From Escherichia phage HK633, in the sequence record NC_019719.1: 41,528 bases of DNA; one strand, given 5' to 3'. This document shows positions 6,736 through 36,968 of the stretch, in pieces. Position numbers and translations under genes: made by a program. How positions within the stretch are numbered: the stretch's first letter is position 1; every line of letters starts with the position of its first letter. Below the pieces are notes generated by a model. The model made no database searches. It had not been told where the DNA came from and saw only the letters and a list, made by a program, of their open reading frames with translations.

Positions 6736-7440
6736 ATGTCTGCACTTTATGAAAAATCGCAGCTGACGAAGATCCTTATTTCCTCCCTGCCGTCCACCAA
6801 AGAAACGATGGATTCCGCCACCTTTCTCGATCTGAGTTGCACCATCAAAGAAATTCAGTTCACTGGTGGCCAGAAGCAGGATATCGACGTAACAACACTT
6901 TGCTCTACCGAGCAGGAGAACATCAACGGCCTGCCTTCTCCGTCAGAAATCTCTCTGTCCGGCAACTTCTACAATAATCCAGCGCAGGACGCCTTGCGTG
7001 ATGCGTATGACAACGACACCACTTACGGCTTCCAGATCATCTTCCCGTCAGGTAATGGTTTTAAGTTCCTGGCCGAAGTTCGCCAGCATACCTGGTCATC
7101 TGGTACCAATGGTGTTGTGGCAGCTACATTCTCACTGCGCCTTAAAGGCAAGCCTGTCCCGATTGACTCTGTACTTAAACTGACCACTGATCTTCCTTCC
7201 TCACTGTCTGTAGCGGTGGGGGCTGCGATCAGCATGGCTGTAGTAGCTGCCGGTGGTAAGCCTCCGTATGCCTACACCTGGAAGAAGGCAGGTAGCACCG
7301 TCAGCGGGCAGACATCCGATACCTTTAATAAAGCCACCGCAGTTTCAGGTGATGCAGGTGATTACACCTGTGTGGTTACGGATTCTTCTTCTCCGGTCAA
7401 AACGGTTACCTCAGCTGCCTGCACCCTTACTATCAGTTAA
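6736..7440 (+). CDS. Major tail protein with C-terminal Ig-like domain
   Basis: GGAG RBS; 234 aa; C-terminal ~80 aa resembles Big_2/Ig-like decoration domain as in lambda gpV. Confidence 0.8.
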   Translation: MSALYEKSQLTKILISSLPSTKETMDSATFLDLSCTIKEIQFTGGQKQDIDVTTLCSTEQENINGLPSPSEISLSGNFYNNPAQDALRDAYDNDTTYGFQIIFPSGNGFKFLAEVRQHTWSSGTNGVVAATFSLRLKGKPVPIDSVLKLTTDLPSSLSVAVGAAISMAVVAAGGKPPYAYTWKKAGSTVSGQTSDTFNKATAVSGDAGDYTCVVTDSSSPVKTVTSAACTLTIS

Positions 7441-7474
7441 TGGAGATGCCGGGTTGTCCCGGCATGGATAAGCG

Positions 7475-7861
7475 ATGTCGCAAACTTTAAAACAATTAGC
7501 CATGGCGAAAATGGCTGGCTTTCGCCATAAGACGGTCGTTGTCCCTGAGTGGGAAGGTGTCAAAGTGGTTCTCCGTGAGCCGTCAGGTGAAGCCTGGCTG
7601 CGCTGGCAGGAGGTGGTGAAAGGGGGGGCCGACGATGAAAATGTGTCGGTATCGGAAAAGGCGCACCGTAATCTTTGCGCTGACGTGGTGCTCTTCATTG
7701 ACGTTCTGTGTGACACCGATAAGCAACCGGTATTCAGCGTAGACGAAGAAGAGCAGGTGCGTGAAATCTACGGGCCCGTGCACTCACGTCTGCTCAAACA
7801 GGCGCTTGACCTGATCAACAATGCGGACGAAGCGCGGGAAAAGTCTCAACCCCCGGCGTAA
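7475..7861 (+). CDS. Tail assembly chaperone (gpG-like)
   Basis: 128 aa between major tail and tape measure; the -1 frame is open from 7810 into the next ORF. Confidence 0.75.
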   Translation: MSQTLKQLAMAKMAGFRHKTVVVPEWEGVKVVLREPSGEAWLRWQEVVKGGADDENVSVSEKAHRNLCADVVLFIDVLCDTDKQPVFSVDEEEQVREIYGPVHSRLLKQALDLINNADEAREKSQPPA

Positions 7862-8148
7862 AGTTTCTGATGTCGCTTGCGCTCCGGATGGGGCGCACGC
7901 TCTCAGAGCTTCGGCAGAATATGACGGCAAGCGAGCTTCTGATGTGGATTGAGTACGACAGGCAAAGCCCGGTTGGCGATATTCGCGGTGATATCCATGC
8001 AGCGCAGATTGTCTCTGCCATCTACGGCTCGCAGGGGGCAAAAGTACCGCTGGACGATGCGATCCTGCGCTGGGGTGGTGATGAGCAATCAGAACCGAAG
8101 GACCCGTTTGCAGGGCTTGAGGCGGCACTTACAGCTGCGACACAATAA
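7810..8148 (+). CDS. Tail assembly chaperone T-frame segment (expected G-T fusion via programmed -1 frameshift)
   Basis: -1 frame relative to G is open from 7810; G-rich/A-run GGGAAAAG at 7836-7843 and C5 run at 7850-7854 lie in the overlap; conserved G/GT arrangement in long-tailed phages. Confidence 0.6.
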   Translation, partial: PDQQCGRSAGKVSTPGVKFLMSLALRMGRTLSELRQNMTASELLMWIEYDRQSPVGDIRGDIHAAQIVSAIYGSQGAKVPLDDAILRWGGDEQSEPKDPFAGLEAALTAATQ

Positions 8149-8205
8149 TTGCTTCACATGCCTTCAATGTAGCGATACGCTCTTTCCTTAAGTAAAGGAG
8201 GCGTT

Positions 8206-8394
8206 ATGGAACCACTGGTAGTAGTGTTTGGAATATTCGGCTGGCTGATAAATCTAATTGTGATTTTTTATTTATTACGGTTTAGCACAAGGGCAAATGA
8301 ACAAGTTGAAGCCCTTAAAGAGATAAATAAAAAGCAAGATGCGCAAATAGATTTATTAATACAAGTCGCTCACCAAAGAAAAGACAGTTTATAA
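8206..8394 (+). CDS. Small inner-membrane protein, YebO / HK97 gp15-like moron
   Basis: 62 aa; AAGGAGG RBS 4 nt before ATG; N-terminal TM helix then R-x-S-x-RAN-x-QVE motif; own terminator follows; sits between G/T and tape measure as HK97 gp15 does. Confidence 0.75.
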   Translation: MEPLVVVFGIFGWLINLIVIFYLLRFSTRANEQVEALKEINKKQDAQIDLLIQVAHQRKDSL

Positions 8395-8400
8395 CTCACG

Positions 8401-8425
8401 ACCCGCTATCAAGCGGGTTTTTTTT
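8401..8425 (+). terminator. Intrinsic terminator (ACCCGCT-ATCA-AGCGGGT + T8)
   Basis: Perfect 7-bp stem, 4-nt loop, 8 T residues; ends at tape-measure start. Confidence 0.8.
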
Positions 8426-8437
8426 ATGGGTGAAAAT

Positions 8438-11400
8438 ATGGCTACGTTGCGCGAACTGATCATCAAAATATCTGCAAACTCTCAGTCATTCCAGTCTGAA
8501 ATTTCTCGTGCTTCAAGAATGGGGAATGACTATTACCGGGTAATGCAGACTGGAGGACGCCAATCGGCCGCAGCTTCGCGTGAAACTCAGCGTGCCTTGG
8601 CTGAGGTAACTAGTCAAATAAACACCGCGAAGGCCTCAGCACTGGGAATGGCTGGTGCATTTGCTGGAGCATTTGCGACTGGTCATCTTATATCGCTGGC
8701 CGATGAATGGAGCTCTGTTAATGCCAGGCTAAAGCAGGCTTCCCAGTCGTCAGATGATTTCACGGAGTCCCAGCGGGCGCTGATGGATATTAGCCAGCGA
8801 ACCGGAACCGCCTTCTCTGATAATGCGAGTCTTTTTGCGCGTTCAGCCGCTTCTATGCGTGAATATGGCTACAGTTCAGAAGAGGTTCTGAAGGTAACCG
8901 AGGCTATATCAACAGGGCTTAAGCTGTCAGGCGCAAGCGCGTCTGAAGCGAGTTCGGTAATCACGCAGTTCAGCCAGGCTCTGGCGCAGGGTGTTCTTCG
9001 AGGCGAGGAATTTAACTCCGTCAACGAAAACGGTGATCGAGTTATCCGTGCTCTTGCCGCAGGGATGGGTGTAGCTCGTAAAGATCTGAAGGCAATGGCC
9101 GATCAGGGGATGCTAACCGCAGATAAAGTTGTCCCGGCCCTGATAAGTCAACTTGGCACTATGCGTGGTGAATTTGAGGCAATGCCGCAGACCGTTTCTG
9201 CTGCCACGACGAAAGTCGAAAATGCTTTCATGGCATGGGTAGGTGGCGCTAATGAAGCCACTGGTGCGACAAGTACTCTTGTTGCCGTATTGAATACGGT
9301 TTCTGACAATATAGACACTGTGGCTACGGCTGCCGGAGCTTTGGCTGCGATAGGTGGAGCTCGCTATCTTGGAGGGATGTTTGGCGATCTTGGGAACCAG
9401 ACGGCGCAATTAATAGATGCCAGAAAGAACGAAATTGCGCTCGCAGCTGCAAGGGCTGAATCTGCTACCCAATCACAACGCAAGGCCGCCGCCGATGCTA
9501 TTGCTGCTGAGCGAGCTTACCAGCTTGCTCAGTCAGAACTTGTGCTGGCAAAGAATACTAATGCTGAGGCTACTGCCACTCAAAATGCCATATCCAAGCG
9601 CCGGGCAATGATTACAGCAAATGCGGCACTGGTACAGTCAAACAGAGCCGTTGCAGCCTCTCAGCAGGCACTTAACTCTGCAACATCAGTGCTGGGGCTT
9701 GTAAAAACTGGCGCTACGGGTCTTTTGTCGTTAGTTGGTGGTTTGCCAGGAATTTTAATGTTGGGTGCTGGGGCGTGGTACACGATGTATCAACGCCAAG
9801 AACAAGCCAGGGAATCTGCAATCCAATATGCGGACACAATCGAGCAGGTACGAGATAATCTGAAATCAATGTCTCAGACGCAGATATCCGCCAACCTTGG
9901 ACAGGCGAATATTTCACTGGATGCTCAGAATAGTGCGATTGAACAGCAGAAGCAGAAAGTTGCTGAATTATCCAATCAACTTTATAACGCAAAATTAGCA
10001 GCCAATTCTGCTTCAGAGGGGACATGGCTGTATAACGATGCGGTTGAGAAAGCCGCAGACTTTGCTTCAGAACTTGCGGTTGAAGAAGGCCGACTTGAGC
10101 AAATGCTCAATAAAAGAAAGCAAACACAACAGTTAATAAACGACATAACTGATCAGGCTATAAATAAAACAGTAGAAATGGCTGGCGCCGTAAGTTCTCT
10201 TACAGAGATGTATGACCGGCTGAACAAGGTTTCCAGACAGTCTACAGCAGTGTCCCCACCAAAATATGCAGGACCTGTACTTCCTGCGCTTGATAATAAG
10301 CAACAACAAGCTATTGAGAAAGCACAGCGACAGCTTGAGCTATCTGGCCTTCAGGGTTTGGATAAGGCTCGAAAGCAGGCAGAATTCGATGCATCTGATC
10401 TGAACCTTCCAGCTGGTTGGCGTGAGAAATATGTCAGCATGGAAGTTGAGTCTGCCAGGCAATTACAAGCAATTCGTAACTCAAGCCGCCATAAGGGTGG
10501 AAAATCCGAGGCGGAAAAAACAGCTGATACCTATGACAAGCTGATCAAGCAGCAAAAAGAGCAGATCGCTCTGCAAGGGCAGAATACCGAGCTGGCAAAG
10601 GTTAAATATCAGGTAAGCCAGGGTGAGCTTTCTACGCTAAGTCAGGCCCAGAAAGCCGAAGTTATGCGTAATGCTGCTCTCATCGATCAGGTTAAATTGC
10701 GTGAGCAACTGCGAAATTACGAAGCCAACCTTGCTGACAGTAACGACAGCGCCCGCGCAGCCAATGAAGCGCAACTGCTGGGCTACGGGCAGGGAACCAG
10801 GTTCCGTGAAAGACTTCAGGAGCAGTTCAATCTGCGTAAGGAGTTTGAGCAGAAGAATACCGATCTTCTCCGCCAGCGTCAGGCTGGTGAAATCGACGAG
10901 ACGTTCTATCAGCAGGGGCTGGCACTTAATAAGCGCTACCTCGAAGAGCGCCTGCGCGACCAGGAGGGATATTACGCAGCTTCTGATGCGCAGCGTGACG
11001 ACTGGATGACGGGACTGTCTGAGGGTTATGCGAACTGGGTGGATGAAGCGACAGATTACTCCTCCATGGCAGCTGACGGGATGAAGCAGGCAATGGGTGG
11101 GGCGGTAACTTCGATTACTGACATGCTCAATGGTAACGTCGACAGCTGGAAGGACTGGGGTGTCAGCGTACTGAAGATCATCCAGAATGTTCTGGTCAAT
11201 ATGGCTGTTGCTAACGGCGTCAGTTCAATTGGTTCTCTCTTCAGCTTTGGCGCATCTTCCGCCGCTGCCGCCAGTAGCGGTACTGCAATTCAGAACGCTG
11301 GCGCGAACTTCACCTTTAACGCGAAGGGTAATGTTTACGACTCTCCGTCCCTGAGCGCATACAGCAATGGCGTGTTTCAGACCCCTCAGCTTTTTGCTTT

Positions 11401-11704
11401 TGCCAAAGGAGCGGGTGTGTTTGCAGAGGCTGGACCTGAAGCCATTATGCCGCTTACCCGTGCTGCTGATGGTTCGCTTGGCGTTCGGGCTGTTGGCACT
11501 GGTGGTGGTCAGGCTGTATCTTCGGCTCCACAGGTTTACATCACCATCGATGGCAACGGAAATACTTCCACGCAGACTTCACCCGGCCTTGAGCAATTTG
11601 GTGCTGATGTCGGTAAATATATTGATCAGCGATATAAGCAGAACATCATGCGAGATATTCGGCCTGGCGGTGACATCTGGAACGCAATGAAAGGAACCCG
11701 ATAA
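8438..11704 (+). CDS. Tail tape measure protein
   Basis: 1088 aa from ATG 8438 (track starts at 8426 inside the terminator T-run); long Ala/Gln-rich coiled-coil region; position between G/T and gpM. Confidence 0.9.
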   Translation: MATLRELIIKISANSQSFQSEISRASRMGNDYYRVMQTGGRQSAAASRETQRALAEVTSQINTAKASALGMAGAFAGAFATGHLISLADEWSSVNARLKQASQSSDDFTESQRALMDISQRTGTAFSDNASLFARSAASMREYGYSSEEVLKVTEAISTGLKLSGASASEASSVITQFSQALAQGVLRGEEFNSVNENGDRVIRALAAGMGVARKDLKAMADQGMLTADKVVPALISQLGTMRGEFEAMPQTVSAATTKVENAFMAWVGGANEATGATSTLVAVLNTVSDNIDTVATAAGALAAIGGARYLGGMFGDLGNQTAQLIDARKNEIALAAARAESATQSQRKAAADAIAAERAYQLAQSELVLAKNTNAEATATQNAISKRRAMITANAALVQSNRAVAASQQALNSATSVLGLVKTGATGLLSLVGGLPGILMLGAGAWYTMYQRQEQARESAIQYADTIEQVRDNLKSMSQTQISANLGQANISLDAQNSAIEQQKQKVAELSNQLYNAKLAANSASEGTWLYNDAVEKAADFASELAVEEGRLEQMLNKRKQTQQLINDITDQAINKTVEMAGAVSSLTEMYDRLNKVSRQSTAVSPPKYAGPVLPALDNKQQQAIEKAQRQLELSGLQGLDKARKQAEFDASDLNLPAGWREKYVSMEVESARQLQAIRNSSRHKGGKSEAEKTADTYDKLIKQQKEQIALQGQNTELAKVKYQVSQGELSTLSQAQKAEVMRNAALIDQVKLREQLRNYEANLADSNDSARAANEAQLLGYGQGTRFRERLQEQFNLRKEFEQKNTDLLRQRQAGEIDETFYQQGLALNKRYLEERLRDQEGYYAASDAQRDDWMTGLSEGYANWVDEATDYSSMAADGMKQAMGGAVTSITDMLNGNVDSWKDWGVSVLKIIQNVLVNMAVANGVSSIGSLFSFGASSAAAASSGTAIQNAGANFTFNAKGNVYDSPSLSAYSNGVFQTPQLFAFAKGAGVFAEAGPEAIMPLTRAADGSLGVRAVGTGGGQAVSSAPQVYITIDGNGNTSTQTSPGLEQFGADVGKYIDQRYKQNIMRDIRPGGDIWNAMKGTR

Positions 11705-13559: not shown

Positions 13560-13784
13560 ATGTATACAGTTGGGTTTGGTTGGATCTTCGTCGGTATTTT
13601 TATTGGGTTAATTCTCTGGTTTTTCATCAACCGCGCCAGCGTCAGAGCGAACAGGCAGGTTGAATTACTTGAGTCTATCGACCAGAAATTATCAAAAATA
13701 GTAGATCCAAACTTCGAGGCAAATAACAAAGACCAGTCGAAAGAAAACTACCTTGAAGAAGCAAGGAAAAAAGCTGGGCTTTGA
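13560..13784 (+). CDS. Second YebO / gp15-like small membrane protein (paralogous moron)
   Basis: 74 aa; AAGGAGA RBS; N-terminal TM helix (GLILWFFINRAS) and RAN-x-QVE motif shared with ORF 8206-8394; GATACT -10-like hexamer at 13525-13530; own terminator. Confidence 0.7.
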   Translation: MYTVGFGWIFVGIFIGLILWFFINRASVRANRQVELLESIDQKLSKIVDPNFEANNKDQSKENYLEEARKKAGL

Positions 13785-13800
13785 GAGCGTAAATTAACAA

Positions 13801-13822
13801 ACCACCTACGGGTGGTTTTTTT
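13801..13822 (+). terminator. Intrinsic terminator (ACCACC-TACG-GGTGGT + T7)
   Basis: Perfect 6-bp stem, tetraloop, T7 read from sequence. Confidence 0.8.
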
Positions 13823-13833
13823 ATGGGGGCAGC

Positions 13834-14442
13834 ATGCAAGAGGTAATGACAAGAATTGAGCTAAGTGGCGTGCTAGCTAAGACATATGGAAGGGTTCATC
13901 ACCGTCTGGTTCTCACTACTGCTGAAGCCATTAATGCACTCGCGAAAACCATCAATGGATTCGAGAAATTCTTAAACACAAGCAAAGCCCGAGGGCTGAC
14001 GTATGCCGTTTATAGAGATAAAAAGAATATTGGCGTTGATGATCTCGGCTTTCCCGTCACCGGCGAAGTGATCCGGATTGTCCCTGTAGTAATAGGGAGT
14101 AAAAAGGCTGGTCTTTTGCAGACGATCTTGGGGGCCGTGCTTATTACTGCTGCTGTGTTGACTGGCCCCGGCGGTATTGGCGCTGCTTTCGCTGCTGGTG
14201 GATTGACGGGGTTTGCTGCTGCCACTGGTGCCTCGTTGGTCCTCGGTGGGGTTATTCAGCTTCTTTCACCACAGCCATCAGGCATAGCCAGCAAACAAAG
14301 CGCAGATAACCGTGCATCGTATGCATTCGGCGGTGTTACAAACACCGCGGCACAGGGGTACCCGGTGCCTCTGCTTTATGGTAAGCGTCGAATCGGCGGA
14401 GCGATTATTTCTGCCGGAATTTATGTCGAAGATCAGCAGTAG
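13834..14442 (+). CDS. I: Tail assembly protein I
   Basis: 202 aa; N-terminal ubiquitin-like region and Gly/Ala-rich hydrophobic C-terminal half; between K and J. Confidence 0.8.
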   Translation: MQEVMTRIELSGVLAKTYGRVHHRLVLTTAEAINALAKTINGFEKFLNTSKARGLTYAVYRDKKNIGVDDLGFPVTGEVIRIVPVVIGSKKAGLLQTILGAVLITAAVLTGPGGIGAAFAAGGLTGFAAATGASLVLGGVIQLLSPQPSGIASKQSADNRASYAFGGVTNTAAQGYPVPLLYGKRRIGGAIISAGIYVEDQQ

Positions 14443-18351: not shown

Positions 18352-18989
18352 TGGCCGAATTTGGCGCGATGATATTAATGGACAACGGGAACCCATTTGT
18401 AACGCCCCAGTCAACGCCTTTTTGTCTTTACGGCAAGTACACTTTCAACTCCTCTGCTAATGGCAGTTCGCAGCAGGTTGCTCAGAATATTGCATTAAAT
18501 GCTGACTACCCTGTGATGGTATTTATCAGGACCACAAATACCGCCCAGCCCACGCCAGTAATATCTTACCGGAACGGCGGAAATATATATGTCGCGGGGG
18601 TTAATCCCTATAACCAGAGCTTCACGTTAACCGCATATATTTTTGCCATATTTCCCCAGACGTTACCGAAATGGGGGATGGCCATCTGGGATTCGAGCGG
18701 GAAGCTGGTACTCACTAATGAGTCCCGCGTGCTGTCAGACTTGCAGACAATCGGAACGCCTGGAGCAAACGGCGGGATTAACATTGACCAGACGCTTGAT
18801 GGTTCATGGGCAGTGGCTCCATCAAGGCTGGGGCAAGTGAACAGAAACGACGCTTACTCATCTTGTAGGTATTCAGGCACAAGTACAAGAATAAACGCCG
18901 GTACAGCCGCAAATACACCTGGCGGTGCTGGAGGGGTGATAAATAATGGAATTATCCTGACAGCAATTAAAACAGACGCCTATGACTGA
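18351..18989 (+). CDS. Hypothetical protein (possible tail-associated)
   Basis: 212 aa; TAATG overlap with upstream ORF; Gly/Asn/Thr-rich. Confidence 0.55.
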   Translation: MAEFGAMILMDNGNPFVTPQSTPFCLYGKYTFNSSANGSSQQVAQNIALNADYPVMVFIRTTNTAQPTPVISYRNGGNIYVAGVNPYNQSFTLTAYIFAIFPQTLPKWGMAIWDSSGKLVLTNESRVLSDLQTIGTPGANGGINIDQTLDGSWAVAPSRLGQVNRNDAYSSCRYSGTSTRINAGTAANTPGGAGGVINNGIILTAIKTDAYD

Positions 18990-19096
18990 TTGTTTTGAGC
19001 GATCAATAACAAATAATTTATCTATCTAATCAATTATACCCATCGATTATGTATTGGTATCTTCGAAGCTACTGAATACCTCTGGATACTATCAAA

Positions 19097-19330
19097 ATGA
19101 AAAGGCTAATTATCTGCATAGCGGGCGCTTTAATGCTGTCTGGTTGTGCTGGTGTACTTGAGAAACAGAAACCGATTTGCAGCGGCACGGCATATATGGG
19201 TGGCCATGAGAATACCGTTATGATTTACGCCGTTCGAAAGCAAAACAACCAGACGCAATACCGGGCCGGATATCCCTTTAACTGGCGCTGGGTAAGTGCG
19301 AACACATTCACAAGCACGACATGTAAATAA
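19097..19330 (+). CDS. Small lipoprotein moron (candidate Cor-type exclusion lipoprotein)
   Basis: 77 aa; signal peptide with lipobox LSGC; AT-rich upstream region 18990-19096; own terminator. Cor assignment is positional only. Confidence 0.65.
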   Translation: MKRLIICIAGALMLSGCAGVLEKQKPICSGTAYMGGHENTVMIYAVRKQNNQTQYRAGYPFNWRWVSANTFTSTTCK

Positions 19331-22262: not shown

Positions 22263-22463
22263 TTACCCATTGGCGCGGCTTAAGAGCTTATTTTTGAATT
22301 CACAATGGTCACGATATAACCATCTTGCTCGACCGTGGATAACTTTGGCTTTTGGCAGGTCGCCGGACTTAATCCGGTCATAGATGAAGGTTTTACCGAA
22401 GCCAGTATCGGCCATGATGAATTTCAAATCAACCAGTGAATCAGGCTGTAGTTCGTGTTGCAT
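22263..22463 (-). CDS. xis: AlpA-family excisionase / transcriptional regulator
   Basis: 66 aa, GGAGAT RBS; helix-turn-helix; adjacent to and upstream of int. Confidence 0.75.
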   Translation of the reverse strand: MQHELQPDSLVDLKFIMADTGFGKTFIYDRIKSGDLPKAKVIHGRARWLYRDHCEFKNKLLSRANG

Positions 22464-22594
22464 GAGTGCTATCTCCGAATAGGGAATCGAACCTGCAAAT
22501 CAGGCAATAAAAAACCGCCATCAGGCGGCTTGGTGTTCTTTCAGTTCTTCAATTCGAATATTGGTTACATTGTTTTCATATATGAATAAATAAA

Positions 22595-22774
22595 TTAGCT
22601 TTTTTCGTTGCCTTCGCTTTCTTTATTAATTTTAACAAACTCGTTTTTACCACGCTCTCCAAATGCGTCTTTAGAGTCGTTGTATCCGCAATCGCAGCAC
22701 ACATAATCACCAGACCATCCACGCATTGTTTTTTCTTTTGCAATATTTCCAGAACCGCATTTTGGACAAGACAT
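22595..22774 (-). CDS. Small zinc-ribbon protein
   Basis: 59 aa from ATG 22774 with GGAGGT RBS 6 nt upstream; CPKCG ... CCDCG four-Cys motif. Confidence 0.55.
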   Translation of the reverse strand: MSCPKCGSGNIAKEKTMRGWSGDYVCCDCGYNDSKDAFGERGKNEFVKINKESEGNEKS

Positions 22775-22870
22775 ATCACTACCTCCAAAGCATGAGTGAG
22801 ATGACAACGTAACATTGATTGGAGATTAACAATAGATTGCTGATGTAAAAGATATGTATAAGCTTCGCTT

Positions 22871-24966: not shown

Positions 24967-25260
24967 TCAGTCATTACTGATAGCGCCATAGCGTGATCGA
25001 TAATTACGCAGGCGCGGGTCAATTTCAGGGAAGTGGGTATATGTGGCTTTGCGGAATGGTCGGATTGATGTCTGGTAAATTCGCTCGCGTTCTTCTTTCT
25101 CTGCAAGCCATATACAATGGCGAAATTCCTTTTCCTCTTTCGTTTCCTGCGGTAGCGACATTATCCGATCGTAGTTTTTTCTGAATTTATCCAGCACCTC
25201 CGATACGGAATTGCCGGAACAGCGGCGCGGGTCATCCGCACCATACAGAGGCGCTGGCAT
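24967..25260 (-). CDS. Hypothetical protein
   Basis: 97 aa from ATG 25260 with AAGGA RBS; track start at 25281 is TTG. Confidence 0.45.
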
Positions 25261-25283
25261 AATGGAATCCTTATTTTGCAAAT

Positions 25284-25667
25284 CTAGAAGGGAATTGAAT
25301 CGTCGTATTCAGGATGATTTTGATGATTGCTACTTTGCTGCTGTTGGCTGTTTCCTGAAGTTGCAAATCCAATCTTTGCATTCAGTAATTCAAGATTGAT
25401 TGATTGACCATTTTGCCCCTGATAAACATCAACCCTGATGTTTTCTCCGGTAATTTCAACAATGCCACCTTCAACAAGAACACTACGGTAGTAATCCGCT
25501 TGCGCTCCCGGCTTGGCAAATACAACGGCGCTGTAGTTTGTCCATTCTTTCTTTTTTGTCTGGCGATCGTAATACTGAACGCCAGCACGGATGTTGAATC
25601 CGATATTTTCCCCGGCCTGAAACTCTCTTGCGGGTTTGTTTAGTCTTACTGTAATCGAATGTGCCAT
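25284..25667 (-). CDS. Single-stranded DNA-binding protein-like (OB fold, acidic DSIPF tail)
   Basis: 127 aa; C-terminus ...EYDDSIPF resembles the SSB partner-binding tip; TAATG coupling to erf. Confidence 0.6.
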   Translation of the reverse strand: MAHSITVRLNKPAREFQAGENIGFNIRAGVQYYDRQTKKKEWTNYSAVVFAKPGAQADYYRSVLVEGGIVEITGENIRVDVYQGQNGQSINLELLNAKIGFATSGNSQQQQSSNHQNHPEYDDSIPF

Positions 25668-26272
25668 TAAGCAGCCGCTCCTTCTAATTCGTCTCGTCTG
25701 ATGTTGTAAACGTCCTGCGCTTTATGCTGCTCCGGTGTGCCTTCGAGCATCTTCCACGCTTTGGCGAACGCCTGTTTAAGCTCTTCTACGGTGTTTTTCT
25801 GCATTGCTGCGTCAGTGAATGCTTTTAGAACCTGTTCAGGTGTAGGTGATGGTTTTGATTGCTTTGCTGCTGCGTTCTGCTGATGTTTATGCTCGTCGGT
25901 ATCTGCATCTTTAGCATCATCAATGCCGAACAAACCATTGAGGCAATACTTGCGTGCATAAGAGCTTGTAGCTCCCGTAACTTGTGCAGAATCCATTCCT
26001 TTCTTGCTTTCTTCCTCTCGTGCTAGCGCGGTTGCCGTATGACTGTTTTCGCCATCAGTAATAGTTGCCGTGGCTTTCACGTAATACCGATCACCAATCA
26101 ACACAACTTCATCGCTGATTGATAAAAACAGACCATTCAGTAACGGCTTAACGCCTTCAAGAATGTCTTCGCAGCTTCTGTATTTATATTTGCCGAATGA
26201 GTTGTACTGATTCTTTGGCGCGTTCAGATTCTCCTGAATAGCTGCCAGTCTTGCGTAAAATTCTTTGCTCAT
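25667..26272 (-). CDS. erf: ERF-family single-strand annealing protein
   Basis: 201 aa from ATG 26272 (track start 26302 is TTG); conserved central region and Lys/Ala-rich C-terminus as in P22 Erf. Confidence 0.7.
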   Translation of the reverse strand: MSKEFYARLAAIQENLNAPKNQYNSFGKYKYRSCEDILEGVKPLLNGLFLSISDEVVLIGDRYYVKATATITDGENSHTATALAREEESKKGMDSAQVTGATSSYARKYCLNGLFGIDDAKDADTDEHKHQQNAAAKQSKPSPTPEQVLKAFTDAAMQKNTVEELKQAFAKAWKMLEGTPEQHKAQDVYNIRRDELEGAAA

Positions 26273-26361
26273 ATGATTGTTCTCAGAATGGACACGGCCC
26301 AAGGAAATAACGCTGATTTAATACTTCAGTCTTTGCCGCATTTAAAAATACGCGAACACCT

Positions 26362-26532
26362 TCACGATCTCCCTTCTGGCGATACATTAACGCCTGCTGC
26401 GTGTACATGCGTCTCTGTAACTTGCTCTCCTTCACTGTGGTTGCAAGTGACATGAATATCTCCTTCGTTACCGATTAAATCTTTCATCTGACGAATGAAT
26501 TCTTCGTCTGACCAGTTATCTGTAAAACTCAT
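26362..26532 (-). CDS. Small acidic protein (position of P22 arf)
   Basis: 56 aa from ATG 26532, overlapping kil-like stop (ATGA); track start is GTG at 26547. Confidence 0.4.
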   Translation of the reverse strand: MSFTDNWSDEEFIRQMKDLIGNEGDIHVTCNHSEGEQVTETHVHAAGVNVSPEGRS

Positions 26533-26681
26533 TTCCTGCGATACCACGGAAGGTTGATAGCTGATTTCATAGCTTTATTTGCTTCAAGCCACATTTTTGA
26601 ATCACCAATAAATCTGGCTATTACTGCTTTGTTCTGTGCTGCACGAAGCATCTGGTGATTGATGGCTATTTCATTGCGCAT
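26529..26681 (-). CDS. kil: Kil-like small protein
   Basis: 50 aa, hand-translated; GAGG RBS 7 nt upstream; motif IARFIGDSKMW resembles lambda Kil; not in ORF track (below 60 aa). Confidence 0.45.
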   Translation of the reverse strand: MRNEIAINHQMLRAAQNKAVIARFIGDSKMWLEANKAMKSAINLPWYRRK

Positions 26682-26797
26682 AATAAGACCTCAACTCTTT
26701 TCCATCCGTCACGTAATTTACGGGTGATTCGTTCAAGTAAAGATTCATTTAGTTGGAAGGCACCCATGCGAGCGCCTCCCGCGATTGCGTAAATCAT
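26666..26797 (-). CDS. cIII: cIII-like FtsH inhibitor
   Basis: 43 aa, hand-translated; AAGGAA RBS 6 nt upstream; core ESLLERITRKLRDGWKR matches lambda cIII as recalled. Confidence 0.65.
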   Translation of the reverse strand: MIYAIAGGARMGAFQLNESLLERITRKLRDGWKRVEVLLCAMK

Positions 26798-26821
26798 GGG
26801 TGGTTCCTTATGTTGGTTTTA

Positions 26822-27724
26822 TTAGTAGGTTATTTTTGTTGCGAATACTTCGCCTTTTACGATGGCTGTTATGATATTTTTAGCAACATCTTCTGATGCG
26901 CCAACCTTGATAAGGTCAGCAAGTATTTTGTTATTTACTTCTTTCCGGTGAGCTTTATCCTTTGCTCTACGCTCTTCTTCGTCCTTGATTCTTTTTTCTT
27001 CTGCTATTCTGGCTTGCTCTTTTGCTTCAGCCTCGCGACGGATTCGTTCAGCCTCCTCCTGTGCTTTTCTGCGTTCTGCTTCAATTGCTGCCTGCTTTTC
27101 TCTTTCAGCTCGTTCTGCTGCGGCCTTAGCTTCTGCTTCTCGCCTTGCTGCTGCTTCAATTTCGGCTTTTGCCTTTGCTTCGGCTTCTGCTCTGGCTTTC
27201 TCTTCAGCTTCTCTTTTTAATCGTTCTTCATGCTCTCGCTTTTCCTGCTCCGCTTTGAGTCTTGCCTCTTCTCTTTGGCGGTCAAATTCGCGATCCATCA
27301 AAATCGCTATTTCATGGTCAGACTCAATTTGCTTTGCGAGAGCTTCAGCTGCTGCCTTAGCTTCTTCTTCGGCTTTAATCCGCGCCTGTTCTTCCTCATA
27401 ATCAGTAAGAGGCTGGCGCGCCTTGGCTTTCAGTTCATCAAGGCGATCGCGCACTGTCTTGCGGTTGGCATCAATTAGCTTTGGAATTTCCTTCAGTTCA
27501 GCAACAAGGTCTTTGCCAAGACCATCGAGATATGTTTTCGTCTGCGCAACTTTATACGCCAGAGAAGCGATCTCCTTTCTGCCCTTTGCCGTTGTGATAT
27601 CAGGCACAAAGGACATAACTTCACGTTCAACCTTTTGAAGGATTTCTTCAATCTGGTCGGCAGACTGAAATACAGTCATTGCATTTGATTTTTCAATAAC
27701 AACTAAATCTGTTACTTCACTCAT
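26822..27724 (-). CDS. Hypothetical protein with N-terminal globular domain and E/A/K/R-rich low-complexity helical region
   Basis: 300 aa from ATG 27724 (GGAGGA RBS); roughly 150 aa of EAKR repeats (TolA-like composition); first gene after the leftward terminator. Confidence 0.6.
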   Translation of the reverse strand: MSEVTDLVVIEKSNAMTVFQSADQIEEILQKVEREVMSFVPDITTAKGRKEIASLAYKVAQTKTYLDGLGKDLVAELKEIPKLIDANRKTVRDRLDELKAKARQPLTDYEEEQARIKAEEEAKAAAEALAKQIESDHEIAILMDREFDRQREEARLKAEQEKREHEERLKREAEEKARAEAEAKAKAEIEAAARREAEAKAAAERAEREKQAAIEAERRKAQEEAERIRREAEAKEQARIAEEKRIKDEEERRAKDKAHRKEVNNKILADLIKVGASEDVAKNIITAIVKGEVFATKITY

Positions 27725-27736
27725 ATATCCTCCATC

Positions 27737-27763
27737 AAAAAAATTGCCCTCACACTGGAGGGC
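27737..27763 (-). terminator. Intrinsic terminator on minus strand (GCCCTC-CAGTGT-GAGGGC + AA + T7), tL-like
   Basis: Perfect 6-bp stem; U7 tail on the minus strand; between the PL-proximal genes and the recombination cassette. Confidence 0.65.
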
Positions 27764-27912
27764 AAAGAAGATTTCCAATAATCAGAACAAGTCGGCTCCT
27801 GTTTAGTTACGAGCGACATTGCTCCGTGTATTCACTCGTTGGAATGAATACAAAGTGCAGTGTTTATTCTGTTGTTTGTGCCAAAAATAAAGGCCGACTA
27901 TGCGTCCTGAAA

Positions 27913-28278
27913 TTACTTAACCAATGATGCTGCATATTCGATAAGGTAAAGTTTTGGAGCAAGCCAAATTTTCAGCCAGTCGAAATAATTGAAGAAAACA
28001 ACAATAGAAGTAATCGCTATTCCTGATGTGACAAGTAGTGATAAAAGAACAATATCTGCATCATCTCCTTTATTCCATGCAAAAATCATCAGATAAACAC
28101 ACGCTATAATCACCAATACACAGATAGCCTGAATTCCAGCTGATGATACGGCGTGCCACATCAAAAGCTGATGGATGACATCAGGAATCTGTGCCTGGCT
28201 AAATGAAACAGCCGCGTCTATTCCATTGCTGGCTTTTTGCAGTAGTTCTACGAGAATCTTGTTTGCTTGTTCTTCCAT
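27913..28278 (-). CDS. Small integral membrane protein (sieB-position; function unknown)
   Basis: 121 aa; AAGGTGA RBS; two to three hydrophobic helices; flanked by 13-bp direct repeats. Confidence 0.6.
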   Translation of the reverse strand: MEEQANKILVELLQKASNGIDAAVSFSQAQIPDVIHQLLMWHAVSSAGIQAICVLVIIACVYLMIFAWNKGDDADIVLLSLLVTSGIAITSIVVFFNYFDWLKIWLAPKLYLIEYAASLVK

Positions 28279-28588
28279 ATATCACCTTGATTGTAATAAG
28301 CATGAAATTATTTACGGCTAAAAAATAAAGGCCACCATCAGCAGCCTTGTTGTAAATGTTGCAGGTATCAAGTAAGTAATTAGATGGAGCGCCATAAATT
28401 ATGAATTCATCGTTTGTCGGATCCATCTCCATCTCTTGGCCTATTGCCATTCTTGCGTCAGTGTCATCAGCGGCGAAGCATAAAACAGCCCACGCTCCCA
28501 TTGTTTTAAAAAGAACTGCAATTGGCTGTGGTTTTACTGAATTTGCGTTAGCGCGAAAATCACAAATCGCACTTTCATGAAATTCCAT
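28199..28588 (-). CDS. Hypothetical protein
   Basis: 129 aa from ATG 28588 (GAGGT RBS), 8 nt after N stop; C-terminal 80 nt overlaps the membrane-protein gene in another frame. Confidence 0.45.
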   Translation of the reverse strand: MEFHESAICDFRANANSVKPQPIAVLFKTMGAWAVLCFAADDTDARMAIGQEMEMDPTNDEFIIYGAPSNYLLDTCNIYNKAADGGLYFLAVNNFMLITIKVIYGRTSKQDSRRTTAKSQQWNRRGCFI

Positions 28589-28596
28589 ATCTAACC

Positions 28597-28923
28597 TCAA
28601 ATAAGTGGTTTGCTGCCTAGTTTCATTTTCTGGCGACCAACACAAGTCACACCCATTTCACTGCGTGGCTTGCTGTACCATGTGCGCTGATTCTTGCGCT
28701 CAATACGTTGCAGGTTGCTTTCAATCTGTTCGTGGTATTCAGCCAGCACTGTAAGGTCTATCGGATTCAGTGCGCTTTCTACTCGTGATTTCGGTTTGCG
28801 ATTCAGCGAGAGAATAGGGCGGTTAACTGGTTTTGCGCTTACCCCAACTAACAGGGGATTTGCTGCTTTCCATTGAGCCTGTTTCTCTGCGCGACGTTCG
28901 CGGCGGCGTGTTTGTGCATCCAT
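28597..28923 (-). CDS. N: Antitermination protein N
   Basis: 108 aa; N-terminal arginine-rich motif MDAQTRRRERRAEKQAQWK and most of the sequence match lambda N as recalled. Confidence 0.9.
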   Translation of the reverse strand: MDAQTRRRERRAEKQAQWKAANPLLVGVSAKPVNRPILSLNRKPKSRVESALNPIDLTVLAEYHEQIESNLQRIERKNQRTWYSKPRSEMGVTCVGRQKMKLGSKPLI

Positions 28924-29191
28924 CTGGATTCTCCTGTCAGTTAGCTTTGGTGGTGTGGTGGCTGGTAGTCTAGCTCCAGCTTGTTGAGTCTCATTCGGAG
29001 GGGTATAACCGGCACCCCAGCGATTTTTCCATGCGACAACGTGCGCGTTATGGCGGCCTTATCGCCCGCGGCTCCCCATCTCGTCCACGCTATTGCTAGC
29101 GTTGGGAGCGCTTCACCGCTCAACAGTAGGTAAGCACTTGCCAGTGACTAGCTGGCTTCACCACACCCCAAAGCCTTCTGCTTTGAATGCT

Positions 29192-29222
29192 GCCCTTCTT
29201 CAGGGCTTAATTTTTAAGAGCC
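29192..29222 (-). promoter_or_regulatory. nutL (boxA GCTCTTA + boxB GCCCTGAAGAAGGGC)
   Basis: Minus strand reads GGCTCTTAAAAATTAAGCCCTGAAGAAGGGC, the lambda nutL sequence. Confidence 0.85.
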
Positions 29223-29266
29223 TCACCTTCATGGTGGTCAGTGCGTCCTGCTGATGGCTTAAAATT

Positions 29267-29334
29267 ACAAGAAAGATTGTATGTTGTAAACAAGAAATAT
29301 TGTAAAAAGGGGCGTGAAAAACAAACTCCATTGT
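29267..29334. promoter_or_regulatory. OL operator cluster (three 14-bp ACAA-N6-TTGT sites) with PL
   Basis: ACAAGAAAGATTGT 29267-29280, ACAAGAAATATTGT 29290-29303, ACAAACTCCATTGT 29321-29334; phage-434 operator architecture. Confidence 0.75.
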
Positions 29335-29383
29335 TTTTAAATGAACAATAGTTTGTTTTTGGTTATCGAGATTGAGGTGGGGA

Positions 29384-29784
29384 TTACTGGTTGCAGGTTC
29401 CGACTACATCACCAACAAATGATTTGGTTGATGTAAGTTGTTGCATACCTGGGATATTCATTACTTTGGAGTAAAGAGCTTTTTTGTCTGTAGTGATTGA
29501 CCAAGTTTCAACGGTTATTCCTCCTCCAGACTGGTATTCTCCTACCATAGTGTTCGATGACAAAGCAGTGTATTTCATCTCTGGATAGACGCCAGAAACT
29601 GATTCATAAACTGATGATTTATCGCCATTTATTGTTACGTGGAAAACGGAATCTTCCGTGCTGTCTTTTGTAAACTCGTAACGATCGCCATTCATTGACC
29701 CGTACCCGTGCAGGTTTGTGACAATCCAGCATTCAGAATTGGCGCTGGTAGTTAAGAGTATTGAGAGTAGCGCCGCAATCCTGA

Positions 29785-29788
<4 letters not shown>
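29384..29788 (-). CDS. Secreted protein of unknown function at the rex position, coupled to cI
   Basis: 134 aa from ATG 29788, which overlaps the cI stop (ATGA); signal peptide MIRIAALLSILLTTSANS; two Cys in the mature part; between cI and OL. Confidence 0.65.
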
Positions 29789-30736
<948 letters not shown>

Positions 30737-30744
30737 GACATTCC

Positions 30745-30776
30745 CGCTCTTACACATCCCAGCCCTGAAAAAGGGC
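30745..30776 (+). promoter_or_regulatory. nutR (boxA CGCTCTTA + boxB GCCCTGAAAAAGGGC)
   Basis: Exact lambda nutR elements read on the plus strand downstream of cro. Confidence 0.85.
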
Positions 30777-30844
30777 ATCAAATTAAACCACACCTATGGT
30801 GTATGCATTTATTTGCATACATTCAATCAATTGTTATCTAAGGA

Positions 30845-30890
30845 AATACTTACATATGGTTCGTGCAAACAAACGCAACGAGGCTCTACG
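30845..30890 (-). promoter_or_regulatory. PRE with CII binding site TTGC-N6-TTGC
   Basis: Minus strand reads TTGCGTTTGTTTGC at 30875-30888, inside the 5' end of cII. Confidence 0.6.
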
Positions 30891-31149
30891 AATCGAGAGT
30901 GCGTTGCTTAACAAAATCGCAATGCTTGGAACTGAGAAGACAGCGGAAGCTGTGGGAGTTGATAAGTCGCAGATCAGCAGGTGGAAGAGGGATTGGATTC
31001 CAAAGTTCTCAATGCTGCTTGCTGTTCTTGAATGGGGTGTCGTTGACGACGACATGGCTCGATTGGCACGACAAGTTGCTTCGATTCTCACCAATAAAAA
31101 ACGCCCGGCGGCAACCGAGCGTTCTGAACAAATCCAGATGGAATTCTGA
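30856..31149 (+). CDS. cII: Transcriptional activator CII
   Basis: 97 aa from ATG 30856 (AAGGA RBS); MVRANKRNEALRIESALLNKIAMLGTEKTAEAVGVDKSQISRWKRDW... matches lambda CII as recalled; track ORF starts upstream at 30796. Confidence 0.9.
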   Translation: MVRANKRNEALRIESALLNKIAMLGTEKTAEAVGVDKSQISRWKRDWIPKFSMLLAVLEWGVVDDDMARLARQVASILTNKKRPAATERSEQIQMEF

Positions 31150-31175
31150 GGTCATTACTGGATCAATCCACAGGA
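31095..31175 (-). ncRNA. oop: OOP-like antisense RNA with conserved terminator
   Basis: Minus strand GGUUGCCGCCGGGCGUUUUUUAUU at about 31095-31118 matches the lambda oop terminator inside the 3' end of cII; 5' end inferred from lambda. Confidence 0.45.
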
Positions 31176-31181
31176 GTAATT

Positions 31182-31343
31182 ATGACAAAACGTCGTAAGA
31201 AATACCAGGAAAAAGAAGAGATTCGACACCCTGATTCACCTGAGGGATTAGTGGTAGCCGCAGCAAATAACAGGGCGTTCGCAGAACGCCTTGTTGGTGT
31301 TTACAGACTAGCCAAAGCAGGAGTGAAACATGGGCGTCGTTAA
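31182..31343 (+). CDS. Small basic ORF at the position of the lambda O start
   Basis: 53 aa; GGAG RBS 5 nt upstream; begins at the conserved lambda-like AGGAGTnATTATGACAAA context. Confidence 0.3.
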   Translation: MTKRRKKYQEKEEIRHPDSPEGLVVAAANNRAFAERLVGVYRLAKAGVKHGRR

Positions 31344-32220
31344 GTTAGCTGATTACAGGCATAACCCTGTACAACATCAGGAGGCATCCAGTATGGGGTA
31401 TGTCTCTATACACCGCCAGTTTATGGACAGCAGGCTCTATAAGGACTCTCAGGCAGTACATCTTTGGCTTCACTTAATCCTCAAGGCTAATCACGAATCT
31501 ACTGTCGTCAATACGGATATCGGTCCGATAACTGTTGATCGCGGTCAGATGATAACTGGACGCCCGTCTCTGGTCAGAGAAACATTCATCCCCGACAACA
31601 AAGTTCGGAGCTTATTACGGACTTTTGAGTCGAAAGGGATGCTTAATATTTGCTCGATGGGGAAGAAATTTAGCCTGTTTACAATCGTTAAATATGACGA
31701 TTTTCAGGCAAAAAATTGTCCAACGGTTGTCCAACGGTTGTCCAACGCAAACACCAGTAATGGCGCGGCTCTCAGCGGAGATTGTCCAACTGCTGTCCAA
31801 CGGTTGTCCATAAACAATAATATAAATAATATCTCTAATACTGACGTATTAGAGAGTGCAACAGCAGACAAAAAGTCTGACAAGAAAAAACCTTCCGTTA
31901 GCTGTCAGGATGTTGTCGATGCTTACCACGAAATCCTTCCTGAAGCGCCAAGAATCCGCGCACTGAATGACAAGCGTAAAAACCAGATCCGAACGTTCTG
32001 GCGCAAAGCCGGAGTGATAACCCGCCAGCTTGACGGGCATGGGTTCACGATGCAGGACTGGAGAAATTATTTGAGCTACGTAGGCGAAAATTGCCGATGG
32101 ATGTTCGAAGAACGCCCAAACCATCAACGCGGAACCGTCTGGCACAAAAAGGGATTTGATTTCCTGCTTAACGACAATACCTACCTGAAAGTTCGTGAGG
32201 GTGAACACGATGACCGATAA
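31330..32220 (+). CDS. Replication initiator (O-like, iteron-binding)
   Basis: 296 aa; contains the origin iterons within the coding sequence; directly upstream of the helicase gene. Confidence 0.75.
   Translation: MGVVKLADYRHNPVQHQEASSMGYVSIHRQFMDSRLYKDSQAVHLWLHLILKANHESTVVNTDIGPITVDRGQMITGRPSLVRETFIPDNKVRSLLRTFESKGMLNICSMGKKFSLFTIVKYDDFQAKNCPTVVQRLSNANTSNGAALSGDCPTAVQRLSINNNINNISNTDVLESATADKKSDKKKPSVSCQDVVDAYHEILPEAPRIRALNDKRKNQIRTFWRKAGVITRQLDGHGFTMQDWRNYLSYVGENCRWMFEERPNHQRGTVWHKKGFDFLLNDNTYLKVREGEHDDR
31716..31845. repeat. Replication origin: TTGTCCAACGG iterons plus AT-rich region
   Basis: At least five copies of (T)TGTCCAAC between 31716 and 31811, followed by AACAATAATATAAATAATATCTCTAATA. 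Confidence 0.75.
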
Positions 32221-33646
32221 TTTTTATGCGCCGCCCCATAGCATCGAGGCAGAGCAGGCGGTGATTGGTGGATTGCTTCTGGATGATGACAGCAGTGAGC
32301 GCGTCCAGAAAGTTCTGGCGATGCTGAAGCCTGATTCATTTTACAGCCGACCACACAAAATCCTTTTCGAAGAAATAACCAGAATGCACCGTGAGCAAAA
32401 GCCAGTAGATGGCCTGACGCTTTTCGATGAACTGGAGCGTAAATCGTTAACGGCGTCTGTTGGCGGTTTTGCTTATATCGCTGAGATCGCAAAGAACACG
32501 CCGAGCGCCGCAAACATCGTTGCCTATGCAATGCAGGTTCGTGAAACCGCAATGGAACGCTACGCCATCAACCGCATGACTGAAGCGACGGAATTGCTCT
32601 ATTCCCGCAACGGAATGACTGCAACGCAGAAGTACGAAGCTATTCAGGCGATTTTCACGCAACTGACAGACCATGCAAAAACCGGATCGCGTCGCGGCCT
32701 TCGCTCATTTGGTGAGGTCATGGAAGACTGGGTTAGCGACCTTGAGAAGCGATTTGACCCGTCAGGCGAACAGCGAGGAATGAGCACAGGGATCCCATCG
32801 CTGGACAGGATGCTGTCACCGAAAGGTCTGGTGAAAGGTTCTCTGTTTGTCATTGGCGCTCGCCCTAAGATGGGGAAAACGACGCTATACAGCCAGATGG
32901 CAATCAACTGCGCAGTGCATGAGAAAAAGCCCGCTCTGATGTTCAGCCTTGAAATGCCAGGTGACCAGATACTGGAAAAACTGGTAGGGCAGAAGTCTGG
33001 TGTTAACCCGAATATTTTTTACCTTCCGGCGACAAATGACGCTGATGACGGCTATCAGGGTGATTACGATGGTGACTTCAACAGGGCGATCGAAACAGCC
33101 AATCGCTTGAGTGAAATCGACATGCTTTACATCGACGACACGCCGGGATTATCTCTGGCTCAAATCGTCAGCGAAAGCCGTCGAATCAAGCGAGAAAAAG
33201 GATGTGTTGGCATGATTCTGGTCGATTACCTGACACTAATGACCGCTGAAAAGGCCGATCGCAACGACCTTGCTTACGGCATGATCACCAAAGGACTGAA
33301 GAACCTTGCCAAAGAGCTTGATTGCGTTGTTGTGCTTCTGACGCAGCTTAACCGCGCATTGGAAAGCAGAACCAATAAACGCCCATTACCAAGTGACTCA
33401 CGAGATACAGGGCAGATTGAACAGGATTGCGATTATTGGGTGGGGATCCATCGTGAAGGTGCTTTTGATGACAGTGTTCCACCTGGTGAAACCGAACTAA
33501 TCCTTCGTCTCAATCGTCATGGCAATACCGGCACGGTGTATTGCATTCAGGCAAATGGCGCTATTTATGACACAGACCAACAGTCCGCTGAAATGCGCCG
33601 CCGTGAACGCGAGGAACCGCAATCCAAGAAGAAAGGAGGATTCTGA
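32210..33646 (+). CDS. Replicative DNA helicase (DnaB-like)
   Basis: 478 aa from ATG 32210 (GAGGGTG RBS); N-terminal PPHSIEAEQAVIGGLL DnaB motif; Walker A GARPKMGKT. Confidence 0.9.
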   Translation: MTDNFYAPPHSIEAEQAVIGGLLLDDDSSERVQKVLAMLKPDSFYSRPHKILFEEITRMHREQKPVDGLTLFDELERKSLTASVGGFAYIAEIAKNTPSAANIVAYAMQVRETAMERYAINRMTEATELLYSRNGMTATQKYEAIQAIFTQLTDHAKTGSRRGLRSFGEVMEDWVSDLEKRFDPSGEQRGMSTGIPSLDRMLSPKGLVKGSLFVIGARPKMGKTTLYSQMAINCAVHEKKPALMFSLEMPGDQILEKLVGQKSGVNPNIFYLPATNDADDGYQGDYDGDFNRAIETANRLSEIDMLYIDDTPGLSLAQIVSESRRIKREKGCVGMILVDYLTLMTAEKADRNDLAYGMITKGLKNLAKELDCVVVLLTQLNRALESRTNKRPLPSDSRDTGQIEQDCDYWVGIHREGAFDDSVPPGETELILRLNRHGNTGTVYCIQANGAIYDTDQQSAEMRRREREEPQSKKKGGF

Positions 33647-33729
33647 TGACCATCTACATCACTGAGCTTGTAACAGGCCTGCTGGTAATCGCAGGCCTTT
33701 TTATTTGGGGGAGAGTAAATCGTGGCTGA
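33646..33729 (+). CDS. Possible 27-aa hydrophobic peptide
   Basis: AGGAGG RBS 6 nt upstream of ATG 33646, which overlaps the helicase stop (TGATG). Confidence 0.3.
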   Translation: MTIYITELVTGLLVIAGLFIWGRVNRG

Positions 33730-33928
33730 GTTTATGCTCGTCGCACTCAAATGCGTTGGCGTTGGATGGATTCTTCTGACGTTTTTTATTGTTCTGCATA
33801 GCTACATTCGTCTTGTGAATGACGGTAAAGACCCATGGTATACGTTGTTTGGCGCTGCATTTGTCTGGGTGATTATCGGTGTTATGCCTGTTGTCGTAGC
33901 AAAAGTGGCGTGGCGTTTTGTGAGTTGA
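33722..33928 (+). CDS. Small membrane protein
   Basis: 68 aa from GTG 33722 (GGGGGAGAG upstream) or 64 aa from ATG 33734; two hydrophobic helices. Confidence 0.45.
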   Translation: MAEFMLVALKCVGVGWILLTFFIVLHSYIRLVNDGKDPWYTLFGAAFVWVIIGVMPVVVAKVAWRFVS

Positions 33929-33935
33929 GGTAACG

Positions 33936-34346
33936 ATGAAGCAAACAATCTTCCTCCGAAGTAAGCAACAACAGCAAGCCGCAATCAACGCCATCCTCGA
34001 AACTCCTCTCGATAAAGACAAGCCAGTCACCATCCGCATTACTGACTACAAGCGCAACCTTGACCAGAACGCAAAATTTCACGCGATGCTGGCGGATATC
34101 GCTTGTCAGGTTCAATGGTGCGGCAAATGGTTAAAACCAGAGCAATGGAAGGTTTTGTTGATCAGCGGTCATGCAGTGGCAACAAAGCAGGAAGCTGATG
34201 TTTTGCCCGGGCTTGAAGGCGAATACGTCAACATTCGCGAAAGCAGCGCGCAGATGAGTGTGAAGCGTATGGCAAGTCTGATCGAGTACACAACAGCCTG
34301 GGCTATTGGTCAGGGTGTCAGATTTACCGACAGGAGGTATGAATGA
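33936..34346 (+). CDS. ninB: NinB recombination protein
   Basis: 136 aa; GAGG RBS; resembles lambda NinB. Confidence 0.8.
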
Positions 34347-34525
34347 GGCGACAGCGACGAAGTATCACCGACATCATCTGCGAAAACTGCAAATACCTTC
34401 CAACGAAACGCTCCAGAAATAAACGCAAGCCAATCCCAAAAGAATCTGACGTAAAAACCTTCAACTACACGGCTCACCTGTGGGATATCCGGTGGCTTAG
34501 AGAACGTGCGAGGAAAACAAGGTGA
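34343..34525 (+). CDS. ninE: NinE
   Basis: 60 aa; [51 protein letters not shown] matches lambda NinE as recalled; ATGA overlap with ninB. Confidence 0.75.
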
Positions 34526-34692
34526 TTGACCCAAATCGAAGTTACGAACAAGAAAGCGTCGAGCGGGCTTTAACGTGCGCTAACTGCGGTCAGAAGCTGC
34601 ATGTGCTGGAAATTCACGTGTGTGAGCACTGCTGCGCAGAACTGATGAGCGATCCGAATAGCTCAATGTACGAGGAAGAAGACGATGAATGA
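34522..34692 (+). CDS. ninF: NinF
   Basis: 56 aa from GTG 34522 (GAGGAA RBS); [37 protein letters not shown] zinc-ribbon motif as in lambda NinF. Confidence 0.6.
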
Positions 34693-36940: not shown

Positions 36941-36968
36941 CGATGGATAAATGCACTCGTTAAATAAA

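Follow-up and report, generated by a model that had tools for sequence, protein, structure and literature searches.

What occupies the short, AT-rich stretch that separates the tail assembly chaperone genes of Escherichia phage HK633 from its tape measure gene, and what might it do for the phage? The DNA considered here is the sequence record NC_019719.1, 41,528 nucleotides long and referred to below as the window, and the stretch in question lies at positions 8149-8425. A preliminary description, made from the letters and a list of open reading frames, placed a small membrane protein gene at this site and likened it to gene 15 of phage HK97. Here the genes on either side, the coding status and signals of the element, its relatives and its probable function are taken in turn.

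The tail genes on either side

Upstream of the element lie two overlapping plus-strand reading frames. The tail assembly chaperone G (HK97 gp13; 7475-7861) is identified by Pfam family Phage_TAC_1 (E 1.6e-60). The T reading frame (HK97 gp14; 7810-8148) is open from 7810 and is joined to G as a G-T fusion via a -1 frameshift: Pfam Phage_tail_T matches 7870-8148 (E 1.5e-20) in a frame that is -1 relative to G, and the HK97 record describes gp14 as 'translated due to a -1 frameshift'. Where G and T overlap, GGGAAAAG occurs at 7836-7843; there the codons of the G frame read CGG GAA AAG and the textbook X XXY YYZ heptamer is out of register. Slippage of a single tRNA from AAG to AAA at the overlap would yield the -1 shift annotated in HK97.

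Downstream lies the gene for the tape measure protein (HK97 gp16/H; 8438-11704, plus strand), which encodes 1088 residues and is taken to start MATLRE, as in HK97. Read mechanically, its open reading frame begins at an ATG at 8426, overlapping the T-run of the preceding terminator. Position 8438 is the likelier start, since related loci (L033, L034) lack the upstream ATG and HK97 annotates MATLRE. The position between the G/T chaperone genes and the tape measure gene, as given in the preliminary description, is confirmed by the Pfam matches and by comparison with HK97.

Further upstream, the major tail protein (6736-7440) has a C-terminal immunoglobulin-like domain, with the tail-tube domains N-terminal to it. 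Its residues from about 154 to 218 match Ig_3 (E 8e-7; 29.8 bits, below the cut-off of 30) and Ig_2 (E 3e-6; 27.9 bits, above the cut-off of 27).

A small coding gene with its own translation and termination signals

The list of open reading frames holds a single frame of at least 30 residues within 8149-8425, located on the plus strand at 8206-8394, and none of that length on the minus strand. It begins with ATG and encodes 62 residues, and the gene call is backed by the open reading frame list, Pfam family YebO, PHROG family phrog_5031 and an AlphaFold2 model; it is referred to here as gene 15 and its product as gp15. Direct reading of the sequence places a Shine-Dalgarno motif, AAGGAGG, at 8195-8201 on the plus strand, 4 nt 5' of the ATG, and its GGAGG core is invariant in an alignment of five loci. 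On the same strand, a terminator scan identified an intrinsic terminator at 8400-8425, formed by a GACCCGCT-ATCA-AGCGGGTT stem-loop with a T8 tail. The hairpin itself (8400-8419) has an 8-bp stem and a 4-nt loop, and its fold of -13 kcal/mol compares with a mean of -3.8 for shuffled sequences (z = -4.1; none of 200 shuffles was as stable). Both the strong ribosome-binding site and the intrinsic terminator described earlier are therefore borne out. The possibility that the cassette specifies a small RNA is unsupported, as no RNA family in Rfam matched anywhere in the window at gathering thresholds.

Comparison with relatives indicates that the frame is a genuine gene. When gene 15 is set beside that of a 97%-identical relative, 12 of the 13 nucleotide differences are third-position changes and the 13 altered codons are synonymous without exception; against a relative with 77% protein identity, 22 codon changes are synonymous and 11 non-synonymous. 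This third-position bias and synonymous excess argue that gp15 is under purifying selection and that gene 15 is a real coding gene.

The product is predicted in silico to be a single-pass inner-membrane protein, in keeping with the original proposal: it has one hydrophobic N-terminal segment, residues 3-23 (mean Kyte-Doolittle value 2.5), with R25 and R29 after it. A single-sequence AlphaFold2 model consists of one continuous helix spanning residues 2-61 (mean pLDDT 94). By the positive-inside rule, E2 ahead of the hydrophobic helix and R25 and R29 behind it suggest an N-out/C-in topology, in which about two residues would be periplasmic and a 38-residue helical tail would be cytoplasmic.

gp15 matches the Pfam YebO family (PF13974) with 38.7 bits, against a gathering threshold of 27, in an alignment that spans positions 8-53 of the 80-position profile and so leaves out its C-terminal third. 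It also belongs to phrog_5031 (E 4e-29), a PHROG family of unknown function. The identical protein occurs in prophages of E. coli, where PGAP labels it 'YebO family protein'; six of 5426 complete E. coli genomes carry it, in prophages and at the same position. No defence-system model in PADLOC matches gp15 or the alternative cargos of the same genomic slot, which are described below.

Identity with HK97 gene 15

The preliminary description had classed the element as a YebO or HK97 gp15-type moron and had proposed alignment with gp15 and with E. coli YebO as a check. Both comparisons agree with that classification: gp15 exceeds the Pfam YebO cut-off, is identical to HK97 Gp15 (AAF31105.1) at 61 of 62 residues (98.4%) and shares 38% identity with E. 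coli YebO across 48 residues. At the nucleotide level, positions 8100-8460 differ from HK97 at one base in 361, a difference that leaves the terminator and the two intergenic regions untouched. The single change gives Leu14 here and Met14 in HK97, inside the transmembrane helix. Apart from an offset of 3, gene 15 stands at the same genome coordinate as in HK97, with gp14 (T) and gp16 as its neighbours, and the HK97 GenBank record lists 'Gp15, moron product' together with a putative terminator at the matching position. HK97 Gp15 thus shares with the present protein its locus, length, ribosome-binding site, terminator and flanking genes, and differs by Leu14/Met14. The Leu14 allele is shared more widely, with gp15 being 100% identical in HK75, HK446, mEp234, HK544, HK106 and mEpX1. 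The element is HK97 gene 15 itself, rather than something of the gp15 type, and so is already known. HK97 gene 15 is said to be the first element to which the name moron was given, by Juhala and colleagues in 2000, and the element is in this respect the founding moron.

The phage as a whole belongs among the HK97-like lambdoid phages, and its left arm is about 98% identical to those of HK75, HK106 and mEpX1, in matches that cover 83-85% of 25 kb. The right arm (25001-41528) is a mosaic of HK542, mEp506, HK022 and Sf6-like segments, with best matches of about 96-97%. No phage record in the collection searched covers more than 63% of the right arm, which points to a new combination within the HK97-like group. 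Mosaicism is also seen among phages with an identical gp15 (HK544, locus L010; HK446, locus L012; and loci L018 and L020), this time in the tape measure protein. When compared with the product of 8438-11704, residues 1-300 are at least 80% identical, the middle portion (residues from about 300 to 700) falls to 26-48% in some, and the C-terminal 300 residues fall to 44-73% in others.

An insertion at a recurrent cargo slot

The limits of the inserted DNA can be read from relatives that lack it. DNA similarity to the Escherichia phage SaltyDalty and the Salmonella phage SW-37 ends at 8144, and resumes at 8413 in SW-37 and at 8415 in a Klebsiella phage, which delimits an AT-rich segment of moron DNA at 8145-8412 (plus strand) that is absent from these relatives. 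In HK022, a mere 19 nt without any gene separates gp14 (T), which runs to 8458, from the tape measure gene gp16, which begins at 8478. As the two genes are adjacent in HK022, the inserted element is a moron in the sense of Juhala et al. (2000). Its composition points the same way: GC content inside the cassette is 0.31-0.39, compared with 0.52-0.59 in the flanks, and over 8149-8412 it is 0.37, compared with 0.58 in gene T and 0.52 at the start of the tape measure gene. Composition unlike that of the flanks and a terminator of its own are both features by which morons are recognised.

The T/tape-measure junction repeatedly serves as a slot for cargo. In SaltyDalty (L002:3151-3545) it holds a 97-residue open reading frame with a signal-peptide-like N-terminus, for which there was no match in Pfam, PHROG or PADLOC, and in SW-37 (L003:292-794) it holds a 137-residue lipoprotein of phrog_890. 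These two cargos have GC contents of 0.32 and 0.39, respectively, each has its own terminator, and a TAGGAT -10-like motif upstream is common to both. Elsewhere in the window, other patches of low GC content (0.38-0.44, against a window mean of 0.50) occur at 13601-14000, 18801-19200, 22401-22800, 27601-28400 and 29201-29600, and these could be other morons or accessory genes.

The promoter

The proposal that the element is a self-contained transcription cassette holds clearly for its terminator. The promoter that this proposal placed within 8149-8205 did not emerge from a sigma-70 consensus scan of 7400-9000, which returned no site matching at 9 or more of 12 positions. The best candidate is a weak putative sigma-70 promoter at 8153-8181 on the plus strand, TTCACA-17 nt-TACGCT, which matches 8 of 12 consensus positions; a relaxed scan also gave two further sites, just as weak, within the 3' end of gene T. 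The two hexamers and their 17-nt spacing are retained in three related loci (L023, L027, L033) in which the spacer sequence has diverged, and the pair recurs where the gp15 of the relatives is 97% and 86% identical. This conservation lends the candidate modest support, short of proof. That gene 15 has a promoter of its own is suggested by the reported expression of HK97 gp15 from the prophage (PMC3594210).

Probable function

The role of gp15 has been studied in HK97. According to the account of Cumby et al. (2012) given in PMC3594210, HK97 gp15 is made from the prophage and inserted in the inner membrane, and it keeps the DNA of HK97 and HK75 from entering the cell, with a specificity that depends on the tail. 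In published work on HK97, swapping the tail region between HK97 and HK022 relieved the inhibition by gp15, and a 2026 review connects gp15 with the step of HK97 injection that involves the tape measure protein and PtsG (PMC12939059). By analogy with this near-identical gene, the stretch at 8149-8425 can with high confidence be taken as the gene 15 superinfection-exclusion moron of an HK97-like temperate phage. The tape measure protein is identical to HK97 gp16 at 1084 of 1089 residues (99%), so this phage, like HK97, would carry both an exclusion gene and a sensitive tail type.

The AT-rich cassette between T and the tape measure gene was acquired horizontally, and a sequence of events in which it acts can be proposed. 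In a lysogen, gp15 would be produced by the repressed prophage and placed in the inner membrane; superinfecting HK97 or HK75 would adsorb, and entry of their genomes would then be blocked independently of repressor immunity, with specificity set by the tail-tube and tape-measure region of the incoming phage. These steps are carried over from the HK97 experiments. Since almost none of gp15 is expected to be exposed to the periplasm, the most likely site of interference would be the bilayer itself, where gp15 would act on the DNA conduit derived from the tape measure protein or on its partner PtsG. Late transcripts of lambdoid phages are antiterminated by Q and read through terminators; during lytic growth, such transcription presumably passes the gene 15 terminator to reach the tape measure gene.

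The same late transcripts would cover gene 15, and this raises the alternative that the gene is mainly an accessory of the late operon in lytic growth, its expression from the prophage being incidental. It might, for example, manage the phage's own tape measure at the membrane, or stop progeny from injecting into an already infected cell. Its weak promoter match (8/12) would suit such a role, as would the constant orientation in which it precedes an HK97-type tape measure gene throughout the 80 IMG/VR loci surveyed below. However, HK022 does without gene 15, and relatives with 93-95% identical G and T genes hold unrelated cargo in the slot, which together imply that the gene is dispensable for tail assembly. 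Prophage expression and gp15-dependent exclusion have, moreover, been published (PMC3594210), and a mainly lytic role is accordingly very unlikely. Superinfection exclusion from the prophage remains the preferred reading, and as a discovery it adds little: this is a textbook moron, annotated in HK97, whose product is a characterised superinfection exclusion protein.

Related genes at the T/tape-measure junction

Homologues of gp15 have been said to be mostly, or only, bacterial (PMC3594210; a 2019 review). A scan of IMG/VR with a small alignment recovered 109 related stretches, and 80 loci were retained from these. In all 80, a gp15/YebO-like gene immediately precedes an HK97-type tape measure gene in the same orientation, at a distance of 40-60 nt in 79 and of 417 nt in the other. 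A T homologue lies upstream of the gene in 79, and the remaining locus ends at a contig edge. In two loci (L035, L056) T is displaced 1.6-2.5 kb from the gene, and in the Klebsiella phage ST147-VIM1phi7.2 (L004:1598-3849) an IS21-family element, comprising a transposase and an AAA ATPase, lies between T and the YebO-like gene. This phage-borne series amounts to a small update to the picture of mostly bacterial homologues.

The proteins fall into classes about 100, 97, 86, 77, 63, 51 and 47% identical to the gp15 of the window, and the gene is AT-rich in all of these classes. A 77-residue YebO-like protein of Klebsiella phages (among them P7641 and ST147-VIM1phi7.2) makes up the 47-51% class. 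Between the window and P7641, identity is 51% for gp15, 58% for G, 62% for T and 54% for the tape measure protein; such similar divergence would fit long residence and not recent capture. The P7641-type gene is still AT-rich (GC 0.35) despite its divergence.

Across these loci, which are highly redundant, the divergence of gp15 and that of the tape measure protein show a rank correlation of 0.71, and the same holds for T. Two classes break the trend: in the Klebsiella class gp15 is at 47-51% while residues 1-300 of the tape measure protein are at 76-84%, and in the L040/L041 class gp15 is at 62-64% with the same tape measure residues at 46-64%. Co-evolution of gp15 with the tape measure protein is not claimed, because adjacency alone explains the correlation and two classes depart from it.

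A broader reading is that gp15/YebO-like genes, instead of being picked up sporadically and recently, are long-standing, diversifying residents of this junction in the HK97-type tail operons of phages of E. coli, Klebsiella and other enterobacteria, each tuned to exclude phages with the adjacent type of tape measure, so that exclusion gene and target would form a linked pair. It draws on the adjacency to an HK97-type tape measure gene in 80 of 80 loci, from 100% to 47% identity and AT-rich throughout. Physical linkage explains the same pattern equally well, however, and gp15 divergence does not cleanly track the tape-measure N-terminus, which leaves this reading rather unlikely. The graded natural variants that lie beside tape measure genes could serve to map exclusion specificity.

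Comparison with known systems

The chromosomal relative of gp15 is E. coli K-12 YebO (b1825, NP_416339.1), which is 38% identical to it over 48 residues by BLASTP. Both proteins have one N-terminal transmembrane helix, an R-x-S-x-R-x-N-x-Q motif and a helical tail, and an alignment of four sequences that includes them has 12 invariant columns. YebO is 95 residues long and is encoded beside mgrB; in comparison, gp15 lacks the last 30 or so and the first eight or so residues. Membership of the YebO family and the similarity over the transmembrane and juxtamembrane region could suggest that gp15 is a lysogenic-conversion copy of the host protein that alters envelope physiology, with exclusion as a side effect, but this is most improbable, since gp15 covers positions 8-53 of the 80-position profile and is missing the C-terminal third of YebO, neither overexpression nor deletion of E. 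coli YebO is reported to have affected HK97 propagation (PMC3594210), and the idea yields no testable mechanistic prediction at present.

The 77-residue proteins of HK97-like phages of Klebsiella (for example QBP28426.1 of ST147-VIM1phi7.2, and that of P7641) are likewise encoded between T and the tape measure gene. Their genes are AT-rich (GC 0.35) and each has a terminator of its own; the proteins are members of phrog_5031 and Pfam YebO, are 47-51% identical to gp15 and extend 15 residues further at the C-terminus. Upstream of these genes, an extended -10-like TGTTATGTT replaces the TTCACA/TACGCT pair. A YebO-like gene is also seen in the tail module of an unrelated siphovirus group, in the Klebsiella phage VLCpiS11a (Guernseyvirinae; L006:2489-2743). 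Its 84-residue open reading frame shares 41% identity with E. coli YebO across 29 residues and reaches 26.6 bits on Pfam YebO, just short of the threshold (27); it is carried on the strand opposite to that of the tail genes, with the gene of the tail assembly chaperone on one side and that of an annotated minor tail protein on the other.

In mode of action, gp15 resembles P22 SieA, Tuc2009 Sie2009 and TP-J34 Ltp, which are likewise prophage-encoded membrane proteins or lipoproteins that block DNA entry after adsorption. These proteins are unlike gp15 in size and topology, and no sequence relationship between them and gp15 is expected; gp15 itself gave no PADLOC hit. Escape from Ltp, as from gp15, maps to the tape measure protein (PMC10883804).
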